Shown here one piece after another: positions 6,182 through 52,811 of a stretch of DNA of 64,000 nucleotides (within the stretch, counting starts at the first letter, position 1; each line of letters starts with the position of its first letter). The DNA lies in the NCBI GenBank assembly GCA_038208735.1, contig JBBQYL010000001.1, forward strand, positions 489 through 64,488, read 5' to 3'. The notes under the pieces were generated by a model, which ran no database searches, was not told the DNA's origin, and was given only the letters and a program-made list of their open reading frames with translations. Both the position numbers and the translations under genes were made by a program. Source of the stretch: Burkholderiales bacterium. Lineage in GTDB: Bacteria; Pseudomonadota; Gammaproteobacteria; Burkholderiales; Burkholderiaceae_C.

Positions 6182-8164
6182 GTGACCCCGACCGCCTACG
6201 AACGCCACCTCGAACGCGCCGTTGCGCTGCTGTCGCGCCGCGTGCGCAGCGGCGCCGCAGGCCTCAGCGGCGAGATCGCCGCCGCCCCCGTGACCAACGC
6301 CGCGTTGCGCGCGCTGCGCGGCGAGGTCGCCTCGACGCTTGCGCGCCGCCACGCCCAGTTCGCGGCCGCGTTTGCCGACGCGTTGAAGCAGTCGGCCATC
6401 GAGTTCACGCATCCGCCCGCGGCGAAGCCGCCCGGCCAGTGGCTGGACCTGGGCGCATTCGAGATCATGGACGAGTCGCGCATCCAGGAGGAGATCGAGG
6501 TGGCCCAGGTCGTGCGGATCCTCGACGAGGACTGCACGGTGGAACTGCGCCGGCTGATCAAGTTCGAGGGCGCGTTGCGCCGCTCCGAGGGCGTGCGCGT
6601 GGCCGCGTCGCCCATCGGTCCGCCGTGCCTGGCGCGCGCGCTGTGGGCCGGTTCGGACGGCCTGGGCCTGGCGCCGCCGGAGCGCGCCGAGCTCGTGCGC
6701 TGCGTCGCGCGCTGGCTGGCCCCGCGTTTGGGCGAGCTCCTTGCCGCCGTGCGCCAGGCCGGCTTCGCGGACGCCTCGCACCTGGAGGCTACCGACCGCG
6801 GTGGCGAAGGCGTCGAAGAACGGTCCACGGTCCACCCACCCACCGGCTTCGACGTCACGCGACCCGGCGCGCTGTTCGAGCTGATGGACCTGGACGAGCA
6901 GCGCCCCGTGTTCGCGGCCTCCACGGCGCACACGCCCCTCGACCGCATTCCCGACACCCTGCCGATGCCGCTCGACGGCGACGACGCGCGCATTCCGGGG
7001 CTGATCCACAGCCATCGCGAGGAACTCACCGCGCTGCGCGACGCCAGCAGTTCCCGGCTGGCGGCGGCGCTCATCGGCCACCTGTTCGTACAGATCGTGG
7101 CCGACGCCGCGCTGTCGGACGCGGCGCGCGTCTGGCTCGCCCGCGTGCAGCCGCTGGTGGTGCAGCTGGCCACGCACGACGCCACGCTGCTGCAGTCGCA
7201 CCGACATCCGGTGTGGACGCTGGTCAACCGCGTGGCCACCACGATGAAGGCCGACAAGGGGCCGCCGGCGCCGGAGTTCGAGCAGTGGCTGTCCGACACG
7301 CTCGCGCAGGTGACGGCCGACCCGTCGACCGCGTCGTTCGAGGCGGCGGGCGAACGGCTGGGGCAGTGGCAGCGCCAGCAGGCGCAGCGCCGGCTGACGT
7401 CGGTGGAGGGTGCGCTCGACCTGCTGCGCCGCAACGCCTCGCTGGAGGAATTGGTGGAGCAGGCCAAGGCGCGGCTGCAGCGCAAGCTCGACTCGGCCAG
7501 GCCGCCGTCGCAGACGCGACGCTTCATCCTGACGCTGTGGGCGCTGGTGGTCGCGCAGGAGTGGACGACCCTGGGGCCCGAGCTGCGTCGCAACTCGCCG
7601 GCCATGGACACCGCCGTCGACATGATCTGGTCCACCGACAAGTCGCGCTCGCGCGCCGACGCGTCCACGTTGGTGGCGATGATTCCTGAACTGGTGGAGC
7701 GCGTGACGGCCGGCATGACCACCGTCAAGCTGTCCGACGCGATGCGCAAGGCCTGGCTCGACCAGATCGCCGCCATCCACCTGCACGCCATGCGCCGCCC
7801 TGCCGCCGAAGAGCCCGCCGCGGGGCCGGTCACCGTCGACCTGGAACTGGACGACGAACTCCCGCCGCCGCCGCCGCCACCGCCTCCGGCGCCGGTCCGC
7901 GCGTCGGACGCGTCGTCCCCGGTCGCGTCGCTGCAGATCGGCGACACCGTCTCGATGCAATTGCACGGCGACTGGCAGGACGTGCAACTGCTGTGGATGA
8001 GCGACAACGGCTACTTCCTGCTGTTCGCCGGCAACGGCGACGGCTCGCACAGCTTCACGCGCAAGGCGCTCGAGAAGATGGCCGCCCAGGGTCTGCTGCG
8101 CACCGCCGATTCCGGCTCGGCGCTGCAGCGCGCCAGCGACGAGCTCATTCGCCGCCGGCACTAG
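6182..8164 (+). CDS. DUF1631-like helical protein with poly-Pro linker and small C-terminal beta domain
   Basis: 660 aa; RVQPLVVQLATHDATLLQSHRHPVWTLVNRVA and LQIGDTVSMQLHGDWQDVQLLWMSDNGYFLLF resemble DUF1631 members. Confidence 0.65.
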   Translation: MTPTAYERHLERAVALLSRRVRSGAAGLSGEIAAAPVTNAALRALRGEVASTLARRHAQFAAAFADALKQSAIEFTHPPAAKPPGQWLDLGAFEIMDESRIQEEIEVAQVVRILDEDCTVELRRLIKFEGALRRSEGVRVAASPIGPPCLARALWAGSDGLGLAPPERAELVRCVARWLAPRLGELLAAVRQAGFADASHLEATDRGGEGVEERSTVHPPTGFDVTRPGALFELMDLDEQRPVFAASTAHTPLDRIPDTLPMPLDGDDARIPGLIHSHREELTALRDASSSRLAAALIGHLFVQIVADAALSDAARVWLARVQPLVVQLATHDATLLQSHRHPVWTLVNRVATTMKADKGPPAPEFEQWLSDTLAQVTADPSTASFEAAGERLGQWQRQQAQRRLTSVEGALDLLRRNASLEELVEQAKARLQRKLDSARPPSQTRRFILTLWALVVAQEWTTLGPELRRNSPAMDTAVDMIWSTDKSRSRADASTLVAMIPELVERVTAGMTTVKLSDAMRKAWLDQIAAIHLHAMRRPAAEEPAAGPVTVDLELDDELPPPPPPPPPAPVRASDASSPVASLQIGDTVSMQLHGDWQDVQLLWMSDNGYFLLFAGNGDGSHSFTRKALEKMAAQGLLRTADSGSALQRASDELIRRRH

Positions 8165-8171
8165 GATCTGT

Positions 8172-8906
8172 TCAGGCCTCGGGCGCCTGCAGCACAGGCC
8201 CCGGCCCGGCCGGCCGGCGCAGCAGCGCCAGGTGCAGCGTCTGCGTCAGCAGTTCGAGCGGATACACGGCATCCATCAGGTCGAACACCATGCGCCACTC
8301 CGCGAGCGTGCCGCGCCACCAGCCGATCTTCTCGGTCTTGCGCGACTGGGTGACGTCGCGCCAGTTCGCCACGGCTACCGGCAGGCGGGCGGCGATGATG
8401 CGCTTGTTCATGAACACCTCGATGCCGAAGCGGGGCAGGGCGTGGATCTCGTGCAGCACGTCGGCCAGCAGGCGCCGGTCCACCACGCGCTCGCCCGACA
8501 CGAAGTCGATGCCGGCCCAGCGGAAGATGGCCAGGCTGTTGCGGCGCAGGCTCATGCTGACGGCGGCGCGGCCAGACAGCACCGGCAGCGCCAGGGCGTC
8601 GAGATCCTGGGCGCGCAGGCCCTTCAGGTCGGCGTCCAGCAGCATCAGCAGGTCGTGGCGCGCGGCGGCGACGCCGGTGGCGATGGCCTGGCTCTTGCCG
8701 CGGTTGCGCGCATGCGTGAGAAGGCGCACGCGCGGGTGACGCGACACCACTGCGGCCGTGTCGTCGGTCGACCCGTCGTCGACGACGATCACCTCGGCCA
8801 CCAGCGGGTGCGCTGCGGCCACCTCCAGCACCGCGCCGATGCGCGGGCCCTCGTTGAAGGCGCAGACGATGCAGGTGATGCGGGGCGTTGAGGCGAAGTG
8901 ATCCAT
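8172..8906 (-). CDS. Glycosyltransferase family 2 (polyprenol-phosphate/GpgS-like)
   Basis: IVCAFNEGPRI, VIVVDDGSTDDT, NRGKSQA, LLMLLDADL. Confidence 0.9.
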   Translation of the reverse strand: MDHFASTPRITCIVCAFNEGPRIGAVLEVAAAHPLVAEVIVVDDGSTDDTAAVVSRHPRVRLLTHARNRGKSQAIATGVAAARHDLLMLLDADLKGLRAQDLDALALPVLSGRAAVSMSLRRNSLAIFRWAGIDFVSGERVVDRRLLADVLHEIHALPRFGIEVFMNKRIIAARLPVAVANWRDVTQSRKTEKIGWWRGTLAEWRMVFDLMDAVYPLELLTQTLHLALLRRPAGPGPVLQAPEA

Positions 8907-9015
8907 GCGCGGCCATCGAGTGGGGACTTGCTCACTATCGACGCGCTTCGTGACAGCGTCACGGCATCGGCATCGGCATCGGCGATCGCCTGTCGGAGGC
9001 GTGTCCGTGTCGCGC

Positions 9016-9055
9016 CTGTCGTCGCGGCGTCATCGAGATGTCATGACCCCTTCAC
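9016..9055 (+). promoter_or_regulatory. PHO-box-like array (four half-sites at 11-bp spacing) upstream of lplT
   Basis: CTGTCGT(9016), GCGTCAT(9027), ATGTCAT(9038), CCTTCAC(9049), compared with the PhoB consensus CTGTCAT-N4-CTGTCAC. Confidence 0.55.
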
Positions 9056-9100
9056 GCGCAGGCCCGAGGCTCGCAAGCTGTCTCCATCCTGTCTGCCGCG

Positions 9101-10354
9101 ATGCCCGCCTCCTTCCTGCTGCTGCTCGCGGCCCAGTTCATGTCGGCGCTGGCGGACAACGCGCTGCTCATCGTCACCATCGACCTGCTGCAACAGCGGG
9201 CGATGCCCGCGTGGCTCGCGCCGATGCTCAAGGGGGCCTTCATCGCGGCCTATGTGGTGCTCGCGCCGTTCGTCGGGCCGCTGGCCGATTCGCTTCCCAA
9301 GGCGCGGCTGATGGCGTGGATGAACGCGGTCAAGATCGGCGGCGTCGCGGCACTGATCTTCGGCGTGCATCCGGTGGCGGCCTTCCTGGTGGTGGGACTC
9401 GGCGCCGCGGCCTATGCGCCGGCCAAGTACGGCCTGGCCACCGAGCTCGTGCGGCCCGACCAGCTGGTGGCGGCCAACGCCTGGATCGAGACGACAGCGG
9501 TGTGCGCGGTGCTGCTGGGCACCGGCCTGGGCGGATTCCTGGTCAGTCCGTGGCTGCTGGCGCACGCCGGCCACGGCGTGGCCGATGCGTTCACTCCCGT
9601 GCTGCCGTCGCTGGCGATCCTGCTGGGCGTCTACCTGCTCGCCGGCATCCTCAACCTGGGCGTGCCTGACAGCGGCGTGCGCCACGCCATCGCGTCCCTG
9701 CATCCCCGCGCGATGGTGCGCGACTTCGTGCAGTCCAACCGCAGGCTGTGGCGCGATCCCGAGGGCGGGCTGTCGCTGGCCGTCACCACCATCTTCTGGG
9801 GCGTGGGCGCCACGCTGCAGTTCGCCGTGCTGCGCTGGGCGCGCGAGAGCCTGCACCTGAGCCTGGACCGGGCCGCGTTCGTGCAGGCCGCGGTGGCGGT
9901 GGGCGTGATCGGCGGCGCCGTGGCGGCGGGTCGGTGGGTGCCGCTGGCGCACGCCAGGCGCATGCTGCATGCGGGCGTGCTGTTCGGCGTGCTGATGATC
10001 GCGGTGCCCTTCATCACCGACCTGGCCCTGGCCGTGGCGGTACTGATCGGGGTGGGCGCCGTGGGCGGGCTGATGGTGGTGCCGCTGAACGCGCTGCTGC
10101 AGGATCGCGGCAACGCGCTGCTGAGCGCGGGCCGGTCGATCGCGGTGCAGGGTGGCAACGAGAACGCCAGCGTGCTGGCATGCCTGGGCGTGTACTCCAC
10201 GCTCGTGGCGTTCGACGTGCCGCTGGCCGCGCTGATGGCCGGCCTGGGCGTGTGCGTGGCGGCCGCGTTGACCGCGATCATCCTGCGCCAACGCGCGCGT
10301 GAGCGCCGCGCGCTCCTTCAGACCGACGAGTGGCGTGCGGGCGTGAACGCGTAG
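9101..10354 (+). CDS. lplT: Lysophospholipid transporter LplT (MFS)
   Basis: AQFMSALADNALL, AYAPAKYGL-TEL, VVPLNALLQDRG, GRSIAVQGGNEN. Confidence 0.8.
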   Translation: MPASFLLLLAAQFMSALADNALLIVTIDLLQQRAMPAWLAPMLKGAFIAAYVVLAPFVGPLADSLPKARLMAWMNAVKIGGVAALIFGVHPVAAFLVVGLGAAAYAPAKYGLATELVRPDQLVAANAWIETTAVCAVLLGTGLGGFLVSPWLLAHAGHGVADAFTPVLPSLAILLGVYLLAGILNLGVPDSGVRHAIASLHPRAMVRDFVQSNRRLWRDPEGGLSLAVTTIFWGVGATLQFAVLRWARESLHLSLDRAAFVQAAVAVGVIGGAVAAGRWVPLAHARRMLHAGVLFGVLMIAVPFITDLALAVAVLIGVGAVGGLMVVPLNALLQDRGNALLSAGRSIAVQGGNENASVLACLGVYSTLVAFDVPLAALMAGLGVCVAAALTAIILRQRARERRALLQTDEWRAGVNA

Positions 10355-11529
10355 CCGGCCACGGGCTCGACGCGGCGCATCACGCCGGCCATCACGCCTT
10401 CCACCTGCGCGGCGATGCTGTCCCAATCGAGCGGCAGCACGCTGGTGCGGGCGCGGGCGCCCAGCACGCGGCAGTTGCCGAGGTCGCTGGCGGTGCGTGC
10501 CGCCGTCGTCACGAACGCGGCGTCGTCTTCGTAGGGCACGAGGGCGCCGTTCTCGCCGTGGCGGATCAGGCGTCCCGCGGCGGCGTAGTCGAACGCGACC
10601 ACGGCCAGGCCGCTGGCCATGGCCTCGGTGGTGACGTTGCCGAAGGTCTCGGTGACGCTCGGAAACAGGAACAGGTCGGCCGACGCGTAGTGCGCCGCGA
10701 GGTCGTCGCCGCCGCGCTGGCCGGCGAAGATCGCGTCGGGGCAGTGCGCCTGCAGCTCTCTGCGCATCGGGCCGTCGCCCACCAGCACGAGGCGGGCGCG
10801 CGGCTGCTGGCGGCGGATCGCGTCGAACGCCGTCACCAGCGTCCTCAGGTTCTTCTCGGGCGCCAGCCGGCCTACGCAGGTGACCACCAGGTCGTTCGGC
10901 GCCGCGCCCCAGCGCGCGCGCAGCGCCTCGCTGCGGTGGGCGACGTCGAAGCGGCGCACGTCCACGCCGCGCGCCACCTGCGTCAGGTCGCGGAAGCCGG
11001 CGGCCTGCAGGTCGTCGTGCAGCGCCTGCGACGGCACCATCGTGCACTGTGTCGCGTTGTGGAAGCGGCGCAGGTAGGCCATGATCGGCCGGCGCAGGAA
11101 GCCGAAGCCGTAGTGCTTGCTGTAGGCGTGGAAGTTGGTGCGGAAGTCGGAGCATACCGGCAGGCCCAGCGCCCGGGCGGCCAGCAGCGCCGAGCGGCCC
11201 AGCGGGCCTTCGGTGGCGATGTGCACCACGTCGGGCCGCTGCTCGCGCCACAGCTTCACCAGCGCGCCCTTGCACGGCAGGCCCATGCGCAGGCCGGCGT
11301 AGTTGGGAATCGGCACGCCGCGCACCAGCACGTCGCCGCGGGCGTCGCCGGAGGCCGTGGGGGCCGAGTCGGCGGGCTGGCGCGGTCGCACCACCTGCAC
11401 CGTGTGGTCGCGCTCGCGCAGGGCCTGCACGAGGCGCGCGATGGTCATCGACACGCCGTTGACCTCGGGCGGATAGGTCTCCGTCACGCAGGCGATTCGC
11501 AGGGGTCTGTGGCCGATGTCTGTTCTCAC
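10318..11529 (-). CDS. GT4 (GT-B) glycosyltransferase, Agt/MgtA-like glycolipid synthase candidate
   Basis: RIACVTETYPPEVNGV, VVHIATEGPLG, FLFPSVTETFGNVTTEAMASGLAVV. GTG at 11529 has a GGAGG RBS, so it is preferred over the ORF-track TTG at 11583. Confidence 0.9.
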   Translation of the reverse strand: MRTDIGHRPLRIACVTETYPPEVNGVSMTIARLVQALRERDHTVQVVRPRQPADSAPTASGDARGDVLVRGVPIPNYAGLRMGLPCKGALVKLWREQRPDVVHIATEGPLGRSALLAARALGLPVCSDFRTNFHAYSKHYGFGFLRRPIMAYLRRFHNATQCTMVPSQALHDDLQAAGFRDLTQVARGVDVRRFDVAHRSEALRARWGAAPNDLVVTCVGRLAPEKNLRTLVTAFDAIRRQQPRARLVLVGDGPMRRELQAHCPDAIFAGQRGGDDLAAHYASADLFLFPSVTETFGNVTTEAMASGLAVVAFDYAAAGRLIRHGENGALVPYEDDAAFVTTAARTASDLGNCRVLGARARTSVLPLDWDSIAAQVEGVMAGVMRRVEPVAGYAFTPARHSSV

Positions 11530-11579
11530 GGAAGGCGCCTCCGAATCGTTGCGGTCGCGGTCGATGATGACCCGTGCTC

Positions 11580-11597
11580 GCAACAGATCGATGACAG
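11580..11597 (-). promoter_or_regulatory. Weak PHO-box-like site upstream of the GT4 gene
   Basis: Minus strand reads CTGTCAT-CGAT-CTGTTGC. Confidence 0.35.
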
Positions 11598-11645
11598 TTC
11601 CGAGTCAATTCATGCCGTCGGCGGACACGGCGCTTTCATATTTGG

Positions 11646-11663
11646 CGGTCACCATCCTGTCAC
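11646..11663 (+). promoter_or_regulatory. PHO-box-like site upstream of the Mpo1-like/aminotransferase/psd operon
   Basis: CGGTCAC-CATC-CTGTCAC, 11-bp spacing, 45 nt before the start codon. Confidence 0.5.
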
Positions 11664-11707
11664 GCCGCGCCGGTCGTCGCCGCCGGCGAACTCCCCAGAG
11701 GAACCCC

Positions 11708-12322
11708 GTGAACAACTTCATGCAAACCCTGCGCACGCTGCGGTGGGACGATCACCGCTTCTATCACCACAGCACCATCAACCAGAGCCTGCACTTCATC
11801 AGCGCGATCACGTTCTGCATCGCCTATGCGCTGCTGTTCGTCGACCCGGCCATCGCCGCCATCCTGGCGTGGACCGTATCGATGACCACGCGCCAGGCCG
11901 GCCACTTCTTCTTCGAGCCGCGCGGCTACGACGAGGTGAACCAGGTCTCCGACGCGTACAAGGAAGCGGTCAAGGCCGGCTACAACATCCGACGCAAGAT
12001 CGTGTTGATGGCGATCTGGGTGGCGATTCCCGCCACGCTGTGGTTCGCCCCGTCGCTGGGTGGCCTGATCCAGCCGCACACCGACCTGCGCGGCTTCGTG
12101 CACGACGTGGGCATCGCCTGGCTGTCGCTGGGCGCCGCGGGCCTGGCGGTGCGCGTGCTCCAGCTGTGCATCACACGCAACGCGACCGAAGGCCTGGCCT
12201 GGGGCTTCAAGATCATCACGGATCCGTTCATGGACATCGCGCTGTACCACAAGGCCCCGCTGAAGCTGGTGCGCGGCCAGATGATCTCGTCGGTGTCGTC
12301 GCCGAGCGCGACCGCGCACTGA
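11708..12322 (+). CDS. Mpo1/DUF962-like integral membrane protein
   Basis: HRFYHHSTINQSLH and QAGHFFFEP His motifs plus TM helices. GAGGA RBS before GTG 11708. Confidence 0.7.
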   Translation: MNNFMQTLRTLRWDDHRFYHHSTINQSLHFISAITFCIAYALLFVDPAIAAILAWTVSMTTRQAGHFFFEPRGYDEVNQVSDAYKEAVKAGYNIRRKIVLMAIWVAIPATLWFAPSLGGLIQPHTDLRGFVHDVGIAWLSLGAAGLAVRVLQLCITRNATEGLAWGFKIITDPFMDIALYHKAPLKLVRGQMISSVSSPSATAH

Positions 12323-12350
12323 GAAATCGACAACAGCCCGTCGCGCCCCC

Positions 12351-14009
12351 ATGGAACCCACCACCTTCGCCCTCTCCGCGTTGATGCTCGCCGCGTTGGC
12401 CGTCATGGCCCCGCGCGCCAAGCGTCGTCTCGAACTCTCGCGAGCCAAGCACGCCTCGCTGACCGGCCATTCGAAGATGGCCAAGCGAATCGCGGGCCTG
12501 CTGCCCGGCTACGCCTACGACGAGGTGCGCTTCTTCGGCTCGGACGGCGCCCCGGCGGAGTTCCAGCAGCGGCGCCGCGCCGGCTTCGAGAAGCTGGCCA
12601 CGCTGTATCGCGAACGCTTTCCGAAGAGCGCCGCGCTGACGGCCCAGGCCAGCACCGGCATCTCCGACCTGCAGTTCACCGGCAGCTACCGTGTTCCGTA
12701 CCAGTACAGCCCGTATCTGCGCCAGCACCTGAAGACGGGCAGCTTCCTGCAGTCGTCCAGCGGCGTCACCGTCCAGGACCTGGACGGCAACCGCTTCCAC
12801 GACCTCACCGGCTCGTACGGCGTCAACCTGTTCGGCTATGACTTCTACAAGGAGTGCATCGCCGAGGGCGCGCGTCGCGTCGCCGAACTGGGTCCCGTGC
12901 TGGGCGCGTATCACCCGGTGCTGGTGGACAACGTGCGGCGCCTCCAGCGCATCTCCGGGCTGGACGAGGTGTCGTTCCACATGTCCGGCACCGAGGCCGT
13001 GATGCAGGCCGTGCGCCTGGCGCGCTATCACACGAGGAAGAAGTACCTGGTGCGCTTCTGCGGCGCCTATCACGGCTGGTGGGAGGACGTGCAGCCCGGA
13101 CCCGGCAATCCGCTGCCCCCGCGCGAGACGTACACGCTGGAGGAGATGAAGGCCGGGACGCTGAAGGTGTTGCGCACTCGCCAGGACATCGCCTGCGTGC
13201 TGGTCAACCCGCTGCAGGCGCTGCATCCCAACGCCGCGGCGCCGGGTGACTCGTCGCTGGTAGATAGCGCGCGCCGCGCGAAGTTCGACCGTGCCGCGTA
13301 CACCGAGTGGCTGAAGCAATTGCGACAGGTCTGCACCGAACGCGGCATCGTGCTGATCTTCGACGAGATATTCGTCGGCTTCCGGCTGGCGCCCGGCGGC
13401 GCGCAGGAGTACTTCGGCGTCCAGGCCGACATGGTCACCTACGGCAAGTCGCTGGGTGGCGGGTTGCCGGTGGGCGTGGTGTGCGGCAGGCGCGAGCTGA
13501 TGAAGCGCTTCCGCGAGGATCGCCCTGCCGACATCTGCTTCGCCCGCGGCACCTTCAACTCGCACCCGTACGTGATGGGCGCGATGAACGTGTTCCTCGA
13601 GCGCCTCGAGGGGGACGACGTCAAGGCCATGTACGACGGCGTCGACCAGCGCTGGAACGATCGAACGGCGCGCTTCAACGAGCGCCTGGAGGCGGCCGGC
13701 GTGCCGGTGCGCGCGGCCAACATCCAGTCGATCTGGATGGTGATGTACGAGCAGCCGTCGCGCTACAACTGGATGCTGCAGTTCTACCTTCGCGCCCACG
13801 GGCTGGCGCTCAGCTGGGTGGGGACAGGCCGGCTGATCTTCAGCCTGAACTACAGCGATGCCGACTTCGACGCGGTGATCGACCGCTTCGTCGCCGCGGC
13901 CGCCGAGATGCAAGGCGACGGCTGGTGGTGGAACGATCCCGCGCAGAGCAACCGCACCATCCGGCGCAGCCTGCTGCGCGAAATGCTGCATGAGCGGTTC
14001 AGCAGCTGA
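12351..14009 (+). CDS. Class-III PLP aminotransferase (GSA aminomutase-like) with N-terminal membrane anchor
   Basis: SGTEAVMQAVRLAR, FCGAYHGWWE, LIFDEIFVGFRL, TYGKSLGGGLPVG (PLP lysine). Hydrophobic N-terminus FALSALMLAALAVM. Confidence 0.9.
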   Translation: MEPTTFALSALMLAALAVMAPRAKRRLELSRAKHASLTGHSKMAKRIAGLLPGYAYDEVRFFGSDGAPAEFQQRRRAGFEKLATLYRERFPKSAALTAQASTGISDLQFTGSYRVPYQYSPYLRQHLKTGSFLQSSSGVTVQDLDGNRFHDLTGSYGVNLFGYDFYKECIAEGARRVAELGPVLGAYHPVLVDNVRRLQRISGLDEVSFHMSGTEAVMQAVRLARYHTRKKYLVRFCGAYHGWWEDVQPGPGNPLPPRETYTLEEMKAGTLKVLRTRQDIACVLVNPLQALHPNAAAPGDSSLVDSARRAKFDRAAYTEWLKQLRQVCTERGIVLIFDEIFVGFRLAPGGAQEYFGVQADMVTYGKSLGGGLPVGVVCGRRELMKRFREDRPADICFARGTFNSHPYVMGAMNVFLERLEGDDVKAMYDGVDQRWNDRTARFNERLEAAGVPVRAANIQSIWMVMYEQPSRYNWMLQFYLRAHGLALSWVGTGRLIFSLNYSDADFDAVIDRFVAAAAEMQGDGWWWNDPAQSNRTIRRSLLREMLHERFSS

Positions 14010-14027
14010 GGACCGCATCGAAAGCTC

Positions 14028-14939
14028 ATGAAAAAACATTTCCGCCGCCTGCTTGCACAGGAAGACCTGAACTTCCTGCTCACCAATCGCGTGCCCCGCA
14101 TCGCATTGACGCACTTCATGGGCAGGTTCAGCAAGATCCGCAACCCGCTCGTCAGCAAGGCGTCGATCGGCCTGTGGAAGCTGTTCACCGACCTCGACCT
14201 GAGCGACGCCCGCCACCGCGAGTTTCGCAGCATGCACGACTGCTTCACGCGCGAGCTGATGCCGGGCGCCCGCGCGATCGATCCCGATCCCGGCGTGCTG
14301 ACGTCGCCCTGCGACGCCATCGTCGGCGCCTGCGGGCCGGTGGCGGGAAGCACCGTGTTCCAGGCCAAGGGCTTTCCGTATCGGTTGGAGGAGCTGTTCG
14401 GGCCGGGCACCGACACCACGCCGTTCCGCGACGGCCGCTTCATCACGCTGCGGCTCACGTCGGCGATGTATCACCGCTTCCACGCGCCGCACGACTGCGA
14501 CGTGAGCCACGTCAGCTACCTCAGCGGCGACACCTGGAACGTGAACCCGATCGCGCTGAAGCGGGTGGAGAAGCTGTTCTGCCGCAACGAGCGCGCCGTG
14601 CTGAGCGCGCGCCTGCGCCGAGGCAACTTTCCCATTGCCATCGTGCCGGTGGCCGCCATCCTCGTGGCCAGCATCCGGCTGCGCTTCACCGACGTGCTGC
14701 TGCACCTGAAGTACCGCGGCCCCAACGAGATCCCGGTGCAGGCCCGCTTCTGCAAGGGCGAGGAGATGGGCGGCTTCCAGCACGGCTCCACCATCCTCCT
14801 GTTCGTGCCGCCGGGCTTCGAGTTCGTCGACGGCATCGACACCGGCGCGCGCATCCGCATGGGCCAGGCGCTGATGCACCTGCCCCCATTGCCGATCGCG
14901 GCCGATTCGTCGCGCGCGCTGGAACAGGTTCCCGCGTGA
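14028..14939 (+). CDS. psd: Phosphatidylserine decarboxylase family proenzyme (pyruvoyl-dependent)
   Basis: FRSMHDCFTREL, LTSPCDA, MYHRFHAP, ERAV, GEEMGGFQHGSTI (GST self-cleavage motif). Confidence 0.88.
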   Translation: MKKHFRRLLAQEDLNFLLTNRVPRIALTHFMGRFSKIRNPLVSKASIGLWKLFTDLDLSDARHREFRSMHDCFTRELMPGARAIDPDPGVLTSPCDAIVGACGPVAGSTVFQAKGFPYRLEELFGPGTDTTPFRDGRFITLRLTSAMYHRFHAPHDCDVSHVSYLSGDTWNVNPIALKRVEKLFCRNERAVLSARLRRGNFPIAIVPVAAILVASIRLRFTDVLLHLKYRGPNEIPVQARFCKGEEMGGFQHGSTILLFVPPGFEFVDGIDTGARIRMGQALMHLPPLPIAADSSRALEQVPA

Positions 14940-15883
14940 CGCGTGCGGGAGCGGCCGCGCTCGCGCGCCGCGCGGGCGTGGCGCTCGCGTGCGTCGGGGT
15001 CGCCGTCGCGCTCGACTTCGTGCTGCGCGACCTCCGCCTGGCCGAGCTGCGCGCGGCGCTGGTGGATCAGCCGCCGATGCGCATCGTGGCGTGCCTCGCG
15101 CTCACCGCGGCGAGCTTCTGCTGCCTGGCGCTGTACGACCTGGTGGGCGTGCGCGTGGCGGCGCCCGGCCGGGTGCGTGCGCGCCTGGCCTTGCTGGCGG
15201 GCGCTTCGAGCGCTGCCATCGCCAACACGGTGGGCTTCCACGCGGTGTCGGGTTCGGCGGTGCGCGCGCACTTGTACCTGCCCGCCGGGCTGGGCGGTGG
15301 CGAGGTGGCGCGCGTCGTGTCGACGTCGTGGCTGTCGCTCGTGGCCGGCAACATGACGATGCTGGCGGGCGCCGAGCTGTTCCAGGCCGCCACCGGCGCC
15401 GATCCGGCCTGGCATGCGGCGCTGGGTGTCGCGCTGGAAGGGCTCCTGGTGACGTGGTTGTGGTGGCTGTCGCGCGGCCGGCGCGAGATCACGATGGGGC
15501 GGTGGCACCTGCCGATGCCATCGGCGTCGCTCGCGCTGCTGTTGATGGCGCTCGGCGCGGTCGAGAGCGGCACCGCCGTGGGCGCGCTGTACGTGCTGCT
15601 GCCGCCCGACCTGGCGCCGCCGTTCGACGTGTTCGCCGTGGGGTGCATCGCGGCCGTGATCCTGGGCGTGGTGTCGCACGCGCCGGGCGGGCTGGGCGTG
15701 TTCGAGGCGGGCATGACGGCGATCCTCTCCGGCCGCGGGCGGCCCGACCTGCTGGCCGCGCTGCTGCTGTATCGCCTGCTCTACAACCTGCTGCCGTTCG
15801 CGTGCGCCGTACTGGCGCTGGGCCTGCGTTCGGGCTGGCGGGCTTTGGTTGGCGTCACAAGGGCAGCGGCGCGTAACGCGTGA
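14936..15883 (+). CDS. Lysylphosphatidylglycerol-synthase TM-domain (MprF/UPF0104-like) membrane protein
   Basis: GTG overlaps the psd stop. ALYDLVG, ANTVGFHAVSGSAVRAHLY, SHAPGGLGVFEAG, LLLYRLLYNLLPF. No acyltransferase domain follows. Confidence 0.75.
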   Translation: MTRAGAAALARRAGVALACVGVAVALDFVLRDLRLAELRAALVDQPPMRIVACLALTAASFCCLALYDLVGVRVAAPGRVRARLALLAGASSAAIANTVGFHAVSGSAVRAHLYLPAGLGGGEVARVVSTSWLSLVAGNMTMLAGAELFQAATGADPAWHAALGVALEGLLVTWLWWLSRGRREITMGRWHLPMPSASLALLLMALGAVESGTAVGALYVLLPPDLAPPFDVFAVGCIAAVILGVVSHAPGGLGVFEAGMTAILSGRGRPDLLAALLLYRLLYNLLPFACAVLALGLRSGWRALVGVTRAAARNA

Positions 15884-15930: not shown

Positions 15931-15958
15931 AAAAAAAACGGCCCCGCGAACGGGGCCG
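15931..15958 (-). terminator. Rho-independent terminator of the small-protein gene
   Basis: Minus strand: cggccccg-ttcg-cggggccg followed by T8. Confidence 0.8.
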
Positions 15959-15992
15959 AAACAGGACTTACAGAAATTCGGTCTGCGGTGGT

Positions 15993-16184
15993 TCAGGCAC
16001 CCGTGATGCGATGGCCCACGATGGTCACGACCCGCATTTCGGTCGCGGCCGGTTGCGTGACCTGCCCCGCGGCGGCGACGCGGTACTGGTGGGCGGCCAG
16101 GGCGTTGGTGGCCAGGAACATCGAGCCCGTCAGCAGGGCGGCGAGGGCGGCGGGGGCGATGCGGGCGGCGAAGGTGTTGGTCAT
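15993..16184 (-). CDS. Small exported hypothetical protein (63 aa)
   Basis: GGAG RBS, signal-like N-terminus ending NALA, own terminator. Confidence 0.6.
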   Translation of the reverse strand: MTNTFAARIAPAALAALLTGSMFLATNALAAHQYRVAAAGQVTQPAATEMRVVTIVGHRITGA

Positions 16185-17632: not shown

Positions 17633-18760
17633 TCAGTCCTTTCCACTCGCCCCCGCCCTCAACCGCTCCCGCGTCCGCGCCGGTGTATTCCCGAACCAGT
17701 CCCGACACGCCCGGTTGAACGAGCTCTGCTCCCGATACCCCAGCATGAAGGCCACGTCGGTGAGGTTCAGCCGCGAGTCGCGCAGCAGCTCCTCGGCCAG
17801 CGCCTGGCGCGCGGCCTCGTGCACCGCCTGGAAGTTGGTGCCCGCCTCGGCCAGCTTGCGCTGCAGCGTGCGTGTGCTCACGGCGAGCGCGGCTGCCACG
17901 TCGTCCACGCGGGCGCGGTCGTTGGCCAGCTGGGCCGCCACCTCGCGGCGCACGTCGGTGACGATGCGCGGCTCGGCGGTCTCGCGCAGGCGCGAGGCCA
18001 GCAGCGCGTCGGCGTGGCGTTGCAGCACCTTCAGCATGCTGCCGTCGGCATTGGGCACCGGGCGGTCCAGCAGCGCGGCGTCGAACCGGCCGTAGGCGGC
18101 GGGCACGCCGTAGATCACGTTCGGGCCGAACACCTGCGCATGCGCCGCGCGGATGGCCGCGTCCGGTTCGGGGTAGGGCAATCCGATCTCGTGCACCGGC
18201 AGCCGCTCGTGGGCCAGCCAGCTCACGAACGTCAGGATGCCGGCCAGCACGCTGTCGCCCAGGTGGCGCGCCTGTGCCGGCGTGCAGGCGTCGAGCCAGG
18301 GCGTGTCCCAGTAGTAGGTGGCGACGCCGTGGCGCTCGTCCAGGCGCGAGCGGCCCAGGTCGTGGGCCAGGCCCTCGTAGCGGCGTGTCTGCTCGAAGGC
18401 GCCGCGCAGCGTGGTGCAGGCACACACCACCAGGCCGTAGAACGGGTAGGTGGACAGCCGGGCGTGCAGTCCAACGTGGAGTCCGAACACGAGGTCGGTG
18501 GCGAGGCGGTGGCCGGCCCCCAGCAGCGCGAGGTACTCGGCCACGCTCAGGCTGTCGCGCGCGGGGTCGAGCGTGTCGGCGGGCCAGCCCAGCTCGGCGC
18601 ACAGCGCGTCGGGCGCCACGCCCTGCGCCTGCGCGGTGGCCACGGCGGTCTGTGCGTAGGCCATCGCCACGCGAGCGTCGGCCGCCGGCGGGATGGGGCA
18701 GGGCGCGTCCGGCGATGCGGCGGCCGCGAGGGTGGGAGAGGGCGCCGGCGGGACTGGCAT
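17633..18760 (-). CDS. AraC-family transcriptional regulator
   Basis: C-terminal double HTH (VSTRTLQRKLAEAG...VAFMLGYREQSSFNRACRDWFGNTP). Divergent from the AGPS-like operon. Confidence 0.92.
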   Translation of the reverse strand: MPVPPAPSPTLAAAASPDAPCPIPPAADARVAMAYAQTAVATAQAQGVAPDALCAELGWPADTLDPARDSLSVAEYLALLGAGHRLATDLVFGLHVGLHARLSTYPFYGLVVCACTTLRGAFEQTRRYEGLAHDLGRSRLDERHGVATYYWDTPWLDACTPAQARHLGDSVLAGILTFVSWLAHERLPVHEIGLPYPEPDAAIRAAHAQVFGPNVIYGVPAAYGRFDAALLDRPVPNADGSMLKVLQRHADALLASRLRETAEPRIVTDVRREVAAQLANDRARVDDVAAALAVSTRTLQRKLAEAGTNFQAVHEAARQALAEELLRDSRLNLTDVAFMLGYREQSSFNRACRDWFGNTPARTRERLRAGASGKD

Positions 18761-18896
18761 GTTGTGGCAACTCGCCTGTCGGCGAAAGACAAGCCGCCGC
18801 GGCACGCGGGGCGCACCATCGCGGCGTCGCGTCGCGGGCGTCCGAGAACTGATCGCCCGCCGACGCCTGTCGACCTGAAAAACGAGTATAGCCACG

Positions 18897-20513
18897 ATGA
18901 CCGCTGAACGACGCTGGAACGGCTGGGGCGACGCCCGGGTGCAGGAAGCGCTCAAGCCCGAGGCGCTGGCCTTCCTGGCGCAGGCCATCGGCGCCGGAGC
19001 GCCCCGCCCCGACGCCGCGTTCGCGGCCGTGCTGGCCCAGGTGGAGGCGCAACCCTCGCGCCTGCCGCCGCATCCGCTGGTGGACGCCGGCGCCGAGACG
19101 CGCCTGCGCGCCAGCTTCGGCCAGTCCATGCACGACTGGCTGCGCCTGCGCTTCGGCGTGCACGGCCGCGTCACCGACGGCGTGGCGTTTCCCGCCAGCG
19201 CGGCCGAGGTGCGCACGCTGCTCACGTGGGCCCGCGAACACGGCGTGCAGGTGCTGCCTTCCGGCGGGGCCACCAGCGTCGCCGGCCACCTCACGCCGGT
19301 GGGCGCGGCGCCGGTGCTCACGCTCAGCATGGGTCGCATGATGCGGCTGCTGGATCTCGACACGGCGTCGCAGCTCGCCCGCTTCGAAGCCGGCGTGGCC
19401 GGGCCCGACCTCGAGGCTCAGCTGCGCGCCCACGGTTTCACGCTGGGACACTTTCCGCAGAGCTTCGAGCTGTCGACGCTGGGCGGCTGGATCGTCACGC
19501 GGTCGTCGGGCCAGCAGTCGGCGCGCTATGGCCGCATCGAGCAGCTGTTCGCCGGCGGCACGCTGCAGACGCCCGAGGGCGAATGGACGCTGCCCACCTT
19601 CCCGGCGTCGGCCGCCGGGCCCGACCTGCGCGAATGGGTGCTGGGCTCCGAAGGCCGGCTGGGCGTGTTGACCGAGGCCAGCGTGCGCGTCACGCGCGCG
19701 CCGGTCGCGGAGCGCTTCGTGGGGATCTTCTTCCCCGACTGGGCCAGCGGCCTGGCGGCGGTGCGTCGCATGGCCCAGGCCAGGCTGGGGCTGTCGATGC
19801 TGCGCCTGGCCAATCCTGCCGAGACCTTCACCACGCTCAGCATGGCCGGCCACGCCGGCACCATGGCGTGGCTGGAACGCTACCTGTCCCTGCGCGGCGC
19901 GGGCGAGGGCAAGTGCCTTCTGTTTGCCGGGTTCACCGGCGACAGCGCCTCGGCCGTGCGCGCGTTGCAGCGCGCCGCGGCGGCGATCTGGCGCGAGCAC
20001 GGCGGCGTGAGCACCGGCACGCTGCTGGGCCGCAAGTGGGCCGAGCGCCGCTTCGCCGGCGTCTACCTGCGCAACGCGCTGTGGGACGCCGGCTACGCGG
20101 TCGACACGATGGAGACGGCGTGCGACTGGCCGCGCGTCGATGCGATGGTGCGGGCGCTCGAGGCCGCCGGCCGAAGCGCGCTCGCGCAACACGGCGAGCG
20201 CACGCACTGCTACACGCACCTGTCGCACGTGTACGCGCAGGGTTCCAGCGTGTACAGCACCTTCGTCTACCGCATCGGCGCCGGCTACGACGAGGCGCTG
20301 GCGCGCTGGCGCTCGCTCAAGACCGCCGTCGGCGACGCCATCGTCGCGCAGGGCGGCACCATCACCCACCAGCACGGCGTGGGCAAGGACCACGCGCGTT
20401 GGCTGGTGGCCGAGAAGGGCGCGACGGGCATGTCGGCCATCGCCGCGATGGTGCGCGAGTTCGACCCGCATGGCGTGATGGCACGCGGCAACCTGCTGGG
20501 GGACGAGCAATGA
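18897..20513 (+). CDS. FAD-binding oxidoreductase, alkyl-DHAP synthase (AGPS)-like
   Basis: MTAERRWNGWG, PSGGATSVAGHL, GHFPQSFELSTLGGWIVTRSSGQQSARYG, HLSHVY, TITHQHGVG. Confidence 0.9.
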   Translation: MTAERRWNGWGDARVQEALKPEALAFLAQAIGAGAPRPDAAFAAVLAQVEAQPSRLPPHPLVDAGAETRLRASFGQSMHDWLRLRFGVHGRVTDGVAFPASAAEVRTLLTWAREHGVQVLPSGGATSVAGHLTPVGAAPVLTLSMGRMMRLLDLDTASQLARFEAGVAGPDLEAQLRAHGFTLGHFPQSFELSTLGGWIVTRSSGQQSARYGRIEQLFAGGTLQTPEGEWTLPTFPASAAGPDLREWVLGSEGRLGVLTEASVRVTRAPVAERFVGIFFPDWASGLAAVRRMAQARLGLSMLRLANPAETFTTLSMAGHAGTMAWLERYLSLRGAGEGKCLLFAGFTGDSASAVRALQRAAAAIWREHGGVSTGTLLGRKWAERRFAGVYLRNALWDAGYAVDTMETACDWPRVDAMVRALEAAGRSALAQHGERTHCYTHLSHVYAQGSSVYSTFVYRIGAGYDEALARWRSLKTAVGDAIVAQGGTITHQHGVGKDHARWLVAEKGATGMSAIAAMVREFDPHGVMARGNLLGDEQ

Positions 20514-20599
20514 GCGGCGGACGCGACTCACGTTCGGTGACGGTGACGGTGACGGTGCCCGTGTCCGTGTCCGTGTCCGTGCCCGTGCCACGCCGATGA
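20510..20599 (+). other. 29-codon mini-ORF coupled by ATGA overlaps to both neighbours (or a frameshifted glpD N-terminus)
   Basis: MSGGRDSRSVTVTVTVPVSVSVSVPVPRR*. Its start overlaps the AGPS-like stop and its stop overlaps the glpD start. Confidence 0.3.
20537..20590 (+). repeat. Nine GTG-initiated hexamers
   Basis: (GTGACG)3 GTGCCC (GTGTCC)3 GTGCCC GTGCCA, read directly. Confidence 0.85.
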
Positions 20600-49970: not shown

Positions 49971-51065
49971 TCACGAGCGCGGCATGCGGCGTGCCGCCCG
50001 CGCCGGGGCGCTGGTGGAGTCTCGCACGATCAGCTCGTGCGGCAGCACGCGCTGCACCGCCGCGATGGTGCGCGTGCCCGGCGTGCCCTGCACGGTGGGC
50101 GTGCCGATCAGCAGGTCGACGGCCGCGCGTGCCATCGCCACCGTGGGCTGGCGCATCGTGGTGAGTGGCGGCCACACCAGGCCGCTGGCGGGCGAATCGT
50201 CGAAGCCGGCGATGGCCAGGTCGTCGGGGATCGCCAGCCCCTGGCGCTGGGCGGCGGCCAGCACGCCCAGCGCCATGTCGTCGTTGCTGGCGAACACGGC
50301 GGTGGGATGGTGGCGCAGCTTGAGCAACTGGTGGGTGGCGGCCACGCCCGATGCGAACTGGAAATCGCCGTCGATCACCAGTTCGGGCGCGATGTCCACG
50401 CGCGCCGCCTTCATCGCCTTGACGAAGCCCTGCTCGCGCAGCGCCGACGCGGCCTGGTCGGCGGCACCGCGGATGAACGCGATGCGGCGATGGCCCAGGC
50501 TCAGCAGCAGGTTGGTGATCTCCTCGGCCGCGTGCACGTCGTCCATGCGCACGCTGGGCATGTCCTTGCGCTGGCGCGCGGGCGATACGAGCACCGTGGG
50601 CGTGCCGCTGTCGTGCAGCGTCTTGAGCACGTGTGGGTTGTCGCACAGCGGCGGCGTCAGGATCATGCCGTCGGGCCGCAGCGTGGACACCATCCGGTGC
50701 ACCTGCTCGCCCAGGTCGTGCGCATCGTTGTCCATCGACTCCACCACCAGGTGGTAGCCCGCCTCGCGGCAGCGCATCGTGGCGCCCTGCTGCACGCCCG
50801 AGACGAAGGCCGCGCTGGGGTCGAAGTACAGCAGGCCGATGAGGAACGAGCGCGCGCCTGCCAGGCTGCGCGCCGACTGGCTGGGCCGGTAGCGCAGGTC
50901 GGTCATCACCTGCAGCACCTTGGCGCGGGTGTCGGGCCGCACGCCGGCCTCGTTGTTCATCACGCGCGAGACGGTCTTGATCGACACGCCGGCCACCTCG
51001 GCCACGTCGCTGATGGTGGTGGAGGCGGCCGGCGGCGTGGCCGATGGCGTGCGGGGGGTCGCCAT
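49971..51065 (-). CDS. LacI-family transcriptional regulator (copy 2)
   Basis: TISDVAEVAGVSIKTVSRVMN, YRPSQSARSLAG, AVFASNDDMALG. Start overlaps the halogenase stop (TGATG). Confidence 0.95.
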   Translation of the reverse strand: MATPRTPSATPPAASTTISDVAEVAGVSIKTVSRVMNNEAGVRPDTRAKVLQVMTDLRYRPSQSARSLAGARSFLIGLLYFDPSAAFVSGVQQGATMRCREAGYHLVVESMDNDAHDLGEQVHRMVSTLRPDGMILTPPLCDNPHVLKTLHDSGTPTVLVSPARQRKDMPSVRMDDVHAAEEITNLLLSLGHRRIAFIRGAADQAASALREQGFVKAMKAARVDIAPELVIDGDFQFASGVAATHQLLKLRHHPTAVFASNDDMALGVLAAAQRQGLAIPDDLAIAGFDDSPASGLVWPPLTTMRQPTVAMARAAVDLLIGTPTVQGTPGTRTIAAVQRVLPHELIVRDSTSAPARAARRMPRS

Positions 51066-52639: not shown

Positions 52640-52745
52640 GAGGCTCGTCTCCAGCGCGGTGGCGGCGTGTGCGCCCCGTCGTTTGTCGGTGCGCGGCGAC
52701 GTCTCGGCATTTACCCGTAGACGCTCGCAGCGCTTCTTATAGCGA

Positions 52746-52811
52746 ATCATAACGGCAAGAAGACAACGCTGTCATTTGATCGTTGACAGCGTTGTCATCG
52801 CTGGGCATCAT
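52746..52811. promoter_or_regulatory. Divergent promoters with two inverted LacI-type operators
   Basis: AGACAACGCTGTCA (52761-52774) and TGACAGCGTTGTCA (52784-52797). Plus promoter TTGACA-N17-CATCAT; minus promoter ATGACA-N18-TATGAT. Each -35 lies inside an operator. Confidence 0.75.

Follow-up and report, generated by a model that had tools for sequence, protein, structure and literature searches.

What do seven neighboring genes of membrane-lipid type, found in a glacier bacterium of the Burkholderiales, make together, and is their product part of a response to scarce phosphate? The replacement of phospholipids is a major adaptation to phosphate scarcity in soil, freshwater, ice, and marine bacteria, and the surrogate lipids known at low phosphate are glycolipids, ornithine lipids, and betaine lipids. 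The genes lie between positions 8172 and 15883 of the stretch of DNA that was analyzed (64 kb, here called the window). All seven are real genes (GC3 of 0.88–0.94), and their family assignments stand (Table 1), bearing out the membrane-lipid identities that an earlier note had given them. A tblastn search with PlcP-like proteins from related loci detected no PlcP in the 64-kb window, as the same note had stated, and Ugd and a lipid methyltransferase, both searched for across the window, are not present either. No pssA gene is near the window’s PSD-type decarboxylase (PSD), Aas is neither fused nor adjacent to the window’s LplT, and no deacetylase is found among the genes of 8172–15883.

Table 1. 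Genes and PHO-like boxes of the locus, with their positions in the window
Feature	Position	Strand	Evidence	Remark
GT2 glycosyltransferase, small	8172-8906	-	PF00535, E 7e-22	lineage-specific accessory
Two overlapping PHO-like boxes	9016-9044	+	three direct repeats 11 bp apart: CTGTCGT / GCGTCAT / ATGTCAT	
LplT lysophospholipid transporter (MFS)	9101-10354	+	NF008397, 469 bits vs equivalog cutoff 297 (passed)	
GT4 lipid-type glycosyltransferase	10318-11529	-	GT4 Pfam domains, E 1e-27 to 1e-34	core
PHO-like box upstream of GT4	11580-11597	-		51-68 bp upstream of GTG at 11529
PHO-like box upstream of Mpo1-like operon	11646-11663	+		45-62 bp upstream of GTG at 11708
Mpo1-like (DUF962) membrane protein	11708-12322	+	PF06127, 20.9 bits	putative iron oxygenase, core
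Class-III aminotransferase, membrane-anchored (HemL / MycA-AMT-like)	12351-14009	+	PF00202, E 3.5e-32	core
PSD-type pyruvoyl decarboxylase proenzyme	14028-14939	+	TIGR00163, 149 bits vs cutoff 112	core in Proteobacteria
MprF-type flippase domain protein without synthase domain	14936-15883	+	NF033480, 162 bits	lineage-specific accessory

The conserved core and its neighbors

The neighborhood survey covered 160 related loci, and detailed counts were taken from the 58 genome loci with enough flanking sequence. The conserved core consists of the GT4 glycosyltransferase, the Mpo1-like protein, the membrane-anchored class-III aminotransferase (AT), and the PSD-type decarboxylase. All four genes are present in 56 of the 58 loci (PSD and the Mpo1-like gene in 58 each, GT4 in 56), mostly ordered differently from the window, the commonest order being PSD(-) AT(+) Mpo1(-) GT4(+) LplT(-); LplT adjoins GT4 in 27/58. 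The core set was found again in 80 metagenome loci (35–71% GC), and the contigs carrying it span 33–72% GC, the one of 33% GC holding a Mpo1-AT-PSD-GT4 operon. Hundreds of other bacteria have the gene group in one place, and between Alpha- and Betaproteobacteria the aminotransferase remains about 70% identical (in Bradyrhizobium). Fusions of the aminotransferase with the Mpo1-like protein occur in four cluster representatives (P0127, P0179, P0196, and P0192), and one such fusion cluster of 78 members belongs to the Methylomirabilota, where GT4 (orthologue match at E 6e-116) and the fused gene overlap in an operon between pstSCAB-type genes and phnCDE/GHIJKLM. In Euglena, the aminotransferase is fused to a GT2. 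GT4 is assigned to the core because of its presence in 56/58 loci, the overlapping operon of the Methylomirabilota, and this glycosyltransferase–aminotransferase fusion.

Several alphaproteobacterial loci carry PSD, the aminotransferase, the Mpo1-like gene, and a methyltransferase, with no GT4 inside the available flank; a PmtA-like N-methyltransferase accompanies the module in this class. At locus L087 the set is extended by GpsA, a HAD phosphatase, and two FAD oxidases, and in both L087 and L089 the PSD gene lies inside a tailoring operon that has no PlcP. Four aminotransferase homologues (~35–40% identity) on single-gene contigs of ~2 kb, probably eukaryotic transcripts, gave no context.

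The earlier note had left the co-conservation of the aminotransferase and Mpo1-like genes to a neighborhood survey, and the 58 genome loci confirm it. From the run that it had proposed (Mpo1-like, aminotransferase, PSD, and flippase), the first three emerge as a co-conserved unit; the MprF-like flippase gene, seen in 5/58 loci, does not belong to it. GT4 and GT2 had also been viewed as a parallel glycolipid branch, which no longer holds as GT4 is part of the core and GT2 is near the module in 3/58 loci and missing from the close relative L004. GT2 and DUF1631 were both rejected as parts of the unit because they are not co-conserved. Of 81 related loci, 26 have a PlcP-like phospholipase gene; Ugd is found in 13 loci and an OlsB-like gene in 5. 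Since plcP often neighbors the module elsewhere, the module falls inside the known PlcP/Agt remodeling system, from which the note had set it apart.

Predicted phosphate control

PHO-like boxes were defined by the pattern CTGTCATN4CTGTCAT with at most three mismatches. The 64 kb contain six matches (shuffle mean 2.24), four of which (at 9016, 9027, 11580 on the minus strand, and 11646) fall within two divergent intergenic regions of ~320 bp in total. Every one of the four transcription units has a box 45–140 bp upstream; the earlier note’s count of three promoters out of four was one too low. The boxes in the intergenic region shared by GT2 and LplT are located 57–85 bp upstream of the LplT ATG and 110–138 bp upstream of the GT2 ATG, and locus L002 has the same arrangement, while the motif of the GT4 box (CTGTCATCGAnCTGTTGy) was found again in orthologous loci. 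In orthologous loci, the density of PHO-like boxes reaches 2.84/kb in the regions between Mpo1 and GT4 (34/53 loci) and 1.38/kb in those between PSD and the aminotransferase, against a background of 0.126/kb overall and 0.2/kb upstream of other ORFs, so that orthologous promoters are enriched ~20-fold; boxes are also present in Bradyrhizobium and Sphingomonas. A promoter scan found no sigma-70 consensus promoter in the region, which says little for activator-dependent promoters. These predicted PhoB sites would tie the locus to phosphate starvation. The phosphate link that had been suggested earlier is supported at the level of sequence by the conserved boxes, the PlcP, Ugd, and OlsB neighbors, and the pst/phn context in Methylomirabilota.

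Candidate enzymes and the proposed pathway

The GT4 reading frame is open as far as a TTG at 11583, but a start at the GTG of 11529, preceded by GGAGG, yields 403 aa and matches the Scleromatobacter orthologue in length. Its best NCBIfam matches are the GlcNAc-PG synthase (124 bits) and MGlcDAG synthase (98 bits) families, both below cutoff (for the GpgS-type family NF053787, 124 bits vs 480), and its closest solved structure is PimA. The Mpo1-like protein scores just under the PF06127 cutoff of 24 bits, a family matched by 32/34 orthologues at E<=0.01 and by the fused relative P0196 with 38.6 bits; no relative was found among solved structures of the PDB. Its invariant residues (D15, H16, H20, H29, H66, E70, D75, E86, D172, and D176) include His, Asp, and Glu of the metal-ligand type, and it looks like an active enzyme. 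Yeast Mpo1, a 2-hydroxy fatty acid dioxygenase, is a distant relative acting on lipid-like 2-hydroxy acids, although the similarity of the window’s protein to the Pfam family is weak (about 21 bits).

The aminotransferase has a single N-terminal hydrophobic segment (residues 3–23), and D338 and K366 are invariant across 17 diverse members. The conserved YGK motif points to K366 as the PLP lysine; the fold match, the PLP lysine, and the PLP-N1 aspartate place the protein in class III, and with K366 and D338 kept it looks active. Among solved structures it comes closest to a beta-ketoacyl aminotransferase domain and to GSAM, the nearest being the AMT domain of mycosubtilin synthase (6kfm, E 4e-45). 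That distant relative acts on beta-keto acyl chains as a PKS/NRPS domain, whereas the window’s enzyme is free-standing and membrane-anchored. An identity as HemL was rejected on the basis of the score (TIGR00713, 169 bits vs 527), the extra N-terminal TM segment and linker of ~90 aa, and the different context.

PSD scores above its curated cutoff, contains the GST self-cleavage motif and the Asp-His-Ser triad, aligns to E. coli PSD (6l06, E 3e-25), and keeps D96, H149, H152, and G253-S254-T255 invariant in 68 sequences; with the cleavage motif and the D/H triad retained it looks active. The position of the E. coli phosphate ligand Y137 is occupied by an invariant Arg (R142) in the module PSDs, as it also is in a minority of true PSDs, and E. 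coli S166 is replaced by Asn in the window’s enzyme. Both residues are compatible with phosphatidylserine or another anionic group as the substrate, and the protein may simply decarboxylate PS in the ordinary way and so provide PE for PlcP. The flippase GTG overlaps the PSD TGA; its 315-aa product covers residues 10–301 of the 841-residue MprF model and matches the MprF TM domains 9goe and 6lvf (E 1e-22), and the C-terminal aminoacyl-PG synthase domain of MprF is absent.

Gene families, catalytic motifs, co-conservation, fusions, and PHO-like boxes were observed directly, and we infer from them the substrates, products, order of steps, and PhoB dependence. We give an even chance to the locus being a PhoB-controlled membrane-lipid renovation system with a previously undescribed four-gene module as its core. 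The best reading of this module is a PhoB-induced oxidation and amination of a lipid head group, probably that of a glucuronosyl glycolipid. GT4 would glycosylate a membrane lipid, most likely diacylglycerol with UDP-glucuronic acid or UDP-glucose, like Agt. The Mpo1-like membrane protein, as a putative iron enzyme, would then convert a head-group hydroxyl to a carbonyl, and the membrane-anchored aminotransferase would turn the carbonyl into an amine, yielding a phosphorus-free nitrogen-containing lipid as a substitute for phosphatidylethanolamine. The PSD-type pyruvoyl enzyme would either decarboxylate an alpha-amino-acid intermediate or feed PE to PlcP for the formation of diacylglycerol. 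In the window’s lineage the MprF-type flippase would move the amine lipid to the outer leaflet, with LplT returning lyso-forms, and in Alphaproteobacteria the PmtA-like enzyme would N-methylate the amine.

As chemistry, oxidation followed by transamination, decarboxylation, and flipping would form a coherent series. The PmtA-like methyltransferase and the MprF-type flippase fit an amine-lipid product (the latter as in GpgSDF; PMC12713373), and a keto-glucuronosyl diacylglycerol has been reported from Pi-starved B. cenocepacia (bioRxiv 10.1101/2023.05.30.542800), which counts in favor of the scheme. The alphaproteobacterial loci that lack GT4, the Mpo1-like score below the Pfam cutoff, and the Arg that fits phosphatidylserine count against it. 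Pyruvoyl decarboxylases require a free alpha-amino acid, and a direct action of PSD on an aminated glucuronosyl head group would be without chemical precedent because C5 of a glucuronopyranoside cannot bear an amine; decarboxylation at C6 was therefore set aside as unlikely, the alpha carbon being the ring-oxygen carbon C5. Contigs from an ice metatranscriptome cover the cluster with a depth that falls from 82 to 7.5 along Mpo1-AT-PSD-flippase, a poor measure of expression. As judged from the genes, the most likely product of the module is a membrane lipid that contains nitrogen, has not been described before, and takes the place of phospholipids under phosphate scarcity. We propose tentatively, and with more doubt than confidence, that this is a new class of phosphorus-free amino lipid formed by on-lipid oxidation, transamination, and decarboxylation, a candidate being an amino- or aminodeoxy-uronosyl or -pentosyl diacylglycerol (N-methylated in Alphaproteobacteria).

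Known systems and alternative explanations

PlcP-Agt remodeling (SAR11, Agrobacterium, Methylosinus, and B. cenocepacia; PMC4796936, PMC9239053, and bioRxiv 10.1101/2023.05.30.542800) has in common with the module the Pho-box promoters, a lipid glycosyltransferase of the GT4 family, genes for UDP-glucose dehydrogenase (Ugd) and a PlcP-like protein (in the orthologous loci), and the theme of phospholipid replacement at low Pi. The plcP neighborhood types described, however, contain no aminotransferase, Mpo1-like, or PSD gene, and the window has predicted upstream Pho boxes without a co-encoded PlcP-type phospholipase C; its lipid-glycosyltransferase-like GT4 is the candidate counterpart of Agt. 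GpgSDF (P. aeruginosa, GlcN-PG; PMC12713373) and HexSDF (C. difficile aminohexosyl glycolipid; PMC10128005) likewise combine a GT4 acting on a lipid head group, amine-exposing tailoring, and a UPF0104/MprF-like flippase. There the amine is obtained by GlcNAc deacetylation, whereas the window encodes an oxidase-like protein and an aminotransferase (plus the decarboxylase) and no deacetylase; it does have a flippase in the operon, but one confined to its own lineage, and its GT4 is not of the GpgS type. The aminoarabinose pathway (Ugd/ArnA/ArnB/ArnC) follows the same logic, in which glucuronic acid, oxidation, CO2 loss, transamination, and flipping lead to a cationic amino sugar on a lipid, yet it uses UDP-sugars, SDR and DegT-type enzymes, and lipid A as the target, while the module’s proteins are membrane-bound and of unrelated families (Mpo1-like, class III, and pyruvoyl). 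PssA-Psd synthesis of PE (E. coli 6l06/7cnw; PMC7952604) shares the PSD fold, D-H-S triad, GST motif, and carboxylate-contacting His; in contrast, the module PSD is associated with Pho boxes, is divergently paired with the aminotransferase, and has no pssA nearby.

Four other explanations were considered. It is unlikely, though worth serious consideration, that no new lipid is made and that the module is a supply line, in which an induced ordinary PSD drives the conversion of PS to PE, PlcP releases diacylglycerol, and GT4 (with Ugd) forms MGDG or GADG from it. The Mpo1-like protein and the enzyme of aminotransferase fold would then deal with the amino or phospho head group set free (e.g., ethanolamine or phosphoethanolamine), so that its phosphate and nitrogen are regained. 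PSD is indeed adjacent to and co-oriented with PlcP in 5 loci and with Ugd in 8, it has all canonical motifs with Arg at the phosphate-ligand position, and some class-III-fold enzymes are phospho-lyases for phosphoethanolamine. The aminotransferase, however, is coupled by operon overlap and fusion to glycosyltransferases rather than to PlcP and is closest to the beta-ketoacyl aminotransferase domain and GSAM, disposal leaves the PmtA-like methyltransferase and the flippase without a role, and the tailoring operons of L087 and L089 hold PSD in the absence of PlcP. A conversion among phospholipids receives little credence from us: a glycerol- or glycerate-type head group (e.g., of phosphatidylglycerol) would pass via a 2-oxo acid to phosphatidylserine and PE, and by the PmtA-like enzyme to N-methylated PE or PC in Alphaproteobacteria, rebalancing anionic and zwitterionic phospholipids under phosphate stress. 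The sequence from 2-hydroxy acid to 2-oxo acid, 2-amino acid, and amine does match the known chemistries of Mpo1, aminotransferases, and PSD, the decarboxylase resembles a true PS enzyme, phospholipid PmtA is the best match of the alphaproteobacterial methyltransferase, and the additional enzymes of L087 would suit such a route. But it would save no phosphorus in a module tied to the Pho regulon, leaves the near-universal GT4 and the Ugd neighbors unexplained, and needs an enzyme from primary alcohol to acid that is absent from the proteobacterial loci.

We consider it just as improbable that the product lies outside the bilayer, the module modifying LPS, a polyprenyl-linked sugar, or an exopolysaccharide primer, or making a soluble amino compound at the membrane, with an Ugd/Arn-like logic. 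Ugd, the aminotransferase, the ArnC-like GT2 (E 5e-6), and the flippase recall the Arn pathway, and the non-lipid acceptors of GT4 enzymes are many; the neighbors, though, are lipid-renovation genes (PlcP, OlsB-like, LplT, and PmtA-like) and not LPS or EPS genes, the best matches of GT4 are lipid glycosyltransferases, and GT2 is not conserved with the module. Chance adjacency, or synteny of close relatives combined with random boxes, is hardly credible and already contradicted: single boxes carry two to three mismatches and spurious patterns are plentiful in high-GC genomes, but the genes stay adjacent in varied order and orientation in Beta- and Alphaproteobacteria, Methylomirabilota, and low-GC contigs, some of them fused, and the boxes are enriched in the orthologous intergenic regions.

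A full-text search of the published literature found no description of the four-gene module, and a 2026 review on ornithine lipids does not mention Mpo1-like, aminotransferase, or PSD enzymes. The gene set is strongly conserved and equipped with PHO-like boxes, yet without a product assigned in the literature found. Cultured carriers of the module exist, which makes the question directly testable. Bacterial polar-lipid profiles often list unidentified aminolipids, and identification of the product could explain these and extend the surrogate lipids by a new class. It would also show what DUF962 proteins and a second type of PSD do, and provide a new metagenome marker of phosphate stress. If the amino-lipid reading is true, the module would reveal the first bacterial function of DUF962/Mpo1-like proteins, a PSD paralogue with a non-phospholipid substrate, and a pathway shared by hundreds of bacterial species, to which protists have related versions.

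Source and gene content of the cluster

The window has a GC content of ~70%, and among named organisms it is closest to Burkholderiales from the Rubrivivax/Scleromatobacter group. Near-identical sequence stems mainly from glacier, ice, and sediment metagenomes, as well as from one ice metatranscriptome. From 8172 to 15883, codon-position GC resolves a single clear gene in each stretch, and scans against Pfam and NCBIfam bore out all seven gene assignments that an earlier note had made from the sequence alone. Two starts were corrected: that of GT4 most likely lies at a GTG with GGAGG ahead of it, which makes the product as long as the Scleromatobacter orthologue (403 aa), and that of the flippase gene lies at a GTG within the overlap with PSD. 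The genes for the Mpo1-like protein, the aminotransferase, the phosphatidylserine decarboxylase-type protein (PSD), and the flippase are spaced by 18-28 bp or overlap, and therefore resemble one operon.

Features of the seven-gene cluster (8172-15883) and of its surroundings, in window coordinates
Feature	Position	Description
DUF1631 protein	6182-8164	Directly upstream of GT2
GT2	within 8172-15883	Small glycosyltransferase (Pfam/NCBIfam)
Tandem hexamer	8963-8983	GGCATC, ~3.5 copies; GT2/LplT intergenic region, just upstream of PHO-like boxes
LplT		Score above equivalog cutoff (NCBIfam)
GT4	start at 11529	GTG start most likely; best curated matches are lipid glycosyltransferases (Pfam/NCBIfam)
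DUF962/Mpo1-like		Membrane protein (PF06127, 20.9 bits, just below the cutoff of 24)
Class-III aminotransferase		Single N-terminal hydrophobic segment
PSD		Score above TIGR00163 cutoff
Flippase	start at 14936	GTG start overlapping the PSD stop codon; matches the flippase half of MprF only
Hairpin	15958-15939	Strong, terminator-like; after the small ORF, directly behind the flippase gene
Small ORF (region 15939-16184)	15990-16184 (-)	~64 aa, signal-peptide-like N-terminus
AraC-family regulator region	17633-22272	~2 kb downstream of the cluster; minus-strand regulator divergent from GlcD-like FAD-linked oxidase (FAD_binding_4 + FAD-oxidase_C) and GlpD-like glycerol-3-phosphate dehydrogenase
Halogenase/receptor pair	51065-55330	Tryptophan-halogenase-family gene divergent from TonB-dependent receptor
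PHO-like matches	53250, 54555	Inside the TonB-dependent receptor coding sequence

The DUF1631 gene is syntenic in the closest relatives (loci L001, L002, and L004) and not elsewhere; in L004 it adjoins LplT directly, with no GT2 in between. Downstream, the arrangement of AraC-family regulator, GlcD-like, and GlpD-like genes is absent from the Scleromatobacter locus. FAD_binding_4 oxidases and GpsA are also carried by the distant module in L087, a locus on a 38% GC contig.

Conservation of the core genes

Diverse homologues of the aminotransferase were aligned, and a scan of a genome collection with this alignment yielded at least 600 matching stretches, the best 80 of which belong to Burkholderiales and Alphaproteobacteria (aminotransferase 67-91% identical). 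Carriers in culture include Scleromatobacter humisilvae, Variovorax sp. OV329, Curvibacter lanceolatus ATCC 14669, Piscinibacter defluvii SH-1, Bradyrhizobium ivorense CI-1B, and Sphingomonas parapaucimobilis YK209. In these best 80, tblastn with the window proteins placed PSD, aminotransferase, Mpo1-like, and GT4 genes next to each other almost everywhere, usually in the order PSD(-) AT(+) Mpo1(-) GT4(+) LplT(-), from which the window's order differs. Among 58 genome loci with enough flank, PSD and the Mpo1-like gene are present in all 58, LplT in 27, a flippase-like gene in five, and GT2 in three. The link to a glycosyltransferase is the most widely conserved, seen as operon overlap, as fusion, and as GT4 in 56 of the 58 loci. 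The neighbourhood survey of the aminotransferase and Mpo1-like genes proposed in the earlier note found PSD and GT4 kept beside them across loci.

A second scan, of metagenome contigs, recovered the same gene set in 80 further loci ranging from 35 to 71% GC. One 33% GC contig carries an operon of Mpo1-like, aminotransferase, PSD, and GT4 genes. On the 38% GC contig, genes for an Aas-like acyltransferase, a HAD phosphatase, and GpsA precede an aminotransferase::Mpo1-like fusion, behind which come PSD and then GT4, each directly preceded by an FAD oxidase gene. Fusions of the aminotransferase to an Mpo1-like domain occur in four cluster representatives, including one that stands for a 78-member Methylomirabilota cluster; in Euglena mutabilis the aminotransferase is joined to a GT2-like domain. 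From co-conservation and fusions, the core therefore consists of GT4, Mpo1-like protein, aminotransferase, and PSD. Of the seven-gene unit originally proposed, these four stood as co-conserved, while GT2 and the flippase belong to the window's lineage only.

The membrane-anchored aminotransferase family also has eukaryotic-looking homologues of roughly 35-45% identity (representative P0131 and loci L088 and L090-L093). P0131, the E. mutabilis transcript, shares 43% identity and encodes a 1189-aa protein in which the aminotransferase is combined with the GT2-like domain and TM segments. Several homologues lie on roughly 2 kb single-gene contigs resembling transcripts, and one adjoins an RPAP2/Rtr1-domain gene.

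PHO-like boxes, neighbours, and transcription

The pattern CTGTCATN4CTGTCAT (up to three mismatches) has six matches in the 64 kb, four of which fall in the cluster's two divergent intergenic regions; the two in the receptor gene are probably due to chance. Given the corrected GT4 start, a PHO-like box lies 45-140 bp upstream of each of the four transcription units, one more than the three reported earlier. A promoter scan of the box-bearing region found no sigma-70 consensus promoter. Across loci, box density reaches 2.84/kb in Mpo1-like/GT4 intergenic regions (34/53 loci) and 1.38/kb in PSD/aminotransferase regions (27/71 loci), over a background of 0.126/kb in all 1.39 Mb and 0.2/kb upstream of 665 other ORFs. 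Two-mismatch boxes also occur in Bradyrhizobium and Sphingomonas loci.

Clustering of the ORFs from 81 loci identified a PlcP-like (LpxH-like) metallophosphoesterase in 26 and UDP-glucose 6-dehydrogenase (Ugd) in 13 as recurrent neighbours, together with a PmtA-like N-methyltransferase in alphaproteobacterial loci and OlsB-like and diglucosyl-DAG-synthase-like genes in a few. Directly after PSD stands Ugd in eight loci and the PlcP-like gene in five. In Methylomirabilota, GT4 overlaps the fused aminotransferase gene, and this pair is flanked by pstSCAB-type and phnCDE/GHIJKLM C-P lyase genes. These observations firmly support a conserved functional module inside the PlcP/Agt lipid-renovation system, with PHO-like boxes ahead. 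One ice metatranscriptome contains 78% of the operon's sampled words, and its contig depth over GT4 and the operon exceeds that of flanking genes and declines along the operon; this shows that the operon is transcribed in situ and is silent on regulation.

Candidate chemistry of the module

In the Mpo1-like protein, Asp, His, and Glu residues of the kind found at metal sites are invariant, and PF06127 is matched by 32 of 34 orthologues, which hit no further family. The aminotransferase keeps K366 and D338, the former being read as the putative PLP lysine from a conserved YGK motif. Its closest solved relative is the β-ketoacyl aminotransferase domain of mycosubtilin synthase, followed by glutamate-1-semialdehyde aminomutases and sugar C-6' aminotransferases.

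The glycosyltransferase link, Ugd, the PmtA-like methyltransferase, and the MprF-type flippase, which resembles those of the amino-glycolipid operons GpgSDF and HexSDF (PMC12713373, PMC10128005), point to a module that aminates a glycolipid head group. Keto-glucuronosyl diacylglycerol has been reported in Pi-starved B. cenocepacia (bioRxiv 10.1101/2023.05.30.542800), and oxidised glucuronosyl diacylglycerol therefore occurs in nature. An amine-lipid pathway is our top-ranked reading, to which we give about an even chance. PSD is the weak point of glycolipid amination, because pyruvoyl enzymes require an α-amino acid and an aminated glucuronopyranoside offers none. In one remaining reading, the true intermediate would be a 2-hydroxy-acid head group that is turned via the 2-oxo acid and the 2-amino acid into the amine; this follows the scheme of oxidation, transamination, and decarboxylation put forward in the earlier note and fits the reactions known for each of the three families.

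In PSD itself, which aligns with the E. coli enzyme, the Asp-His-Ser triad is intact, as is the GST cleavage site. The E. coli structure (PMC7952604) shows which residues contact the phosphate when PE is bound; mapped onto the alignment, Y137 corresponds to an invariant Arg and S166 to an invariant Asn. Arg at the former position occurs in about 15% of PSDs (PMC7952604), so that the site remains suited to phosphate or another anionic group. PSD might be an ordinary PS decarboxylase feeding PE to PlcP for diacylglycerol, which we consider unlikely; phospholipid conversion and a non-lipid product rank below it, both being improbable. A reading in which the whole gene set recycles phospholipid head groups also remains.

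The gene set was not found described in the literature searched, and neither a PlcP neighbourhood classification nor a 2026 review of amino lipids (ornithine lipids) mentions it. The module is best classed as phosphate-starvation lipid remodelling combined with amino-glycolipid synthesis, built from enzyme families previously unconnected with either.
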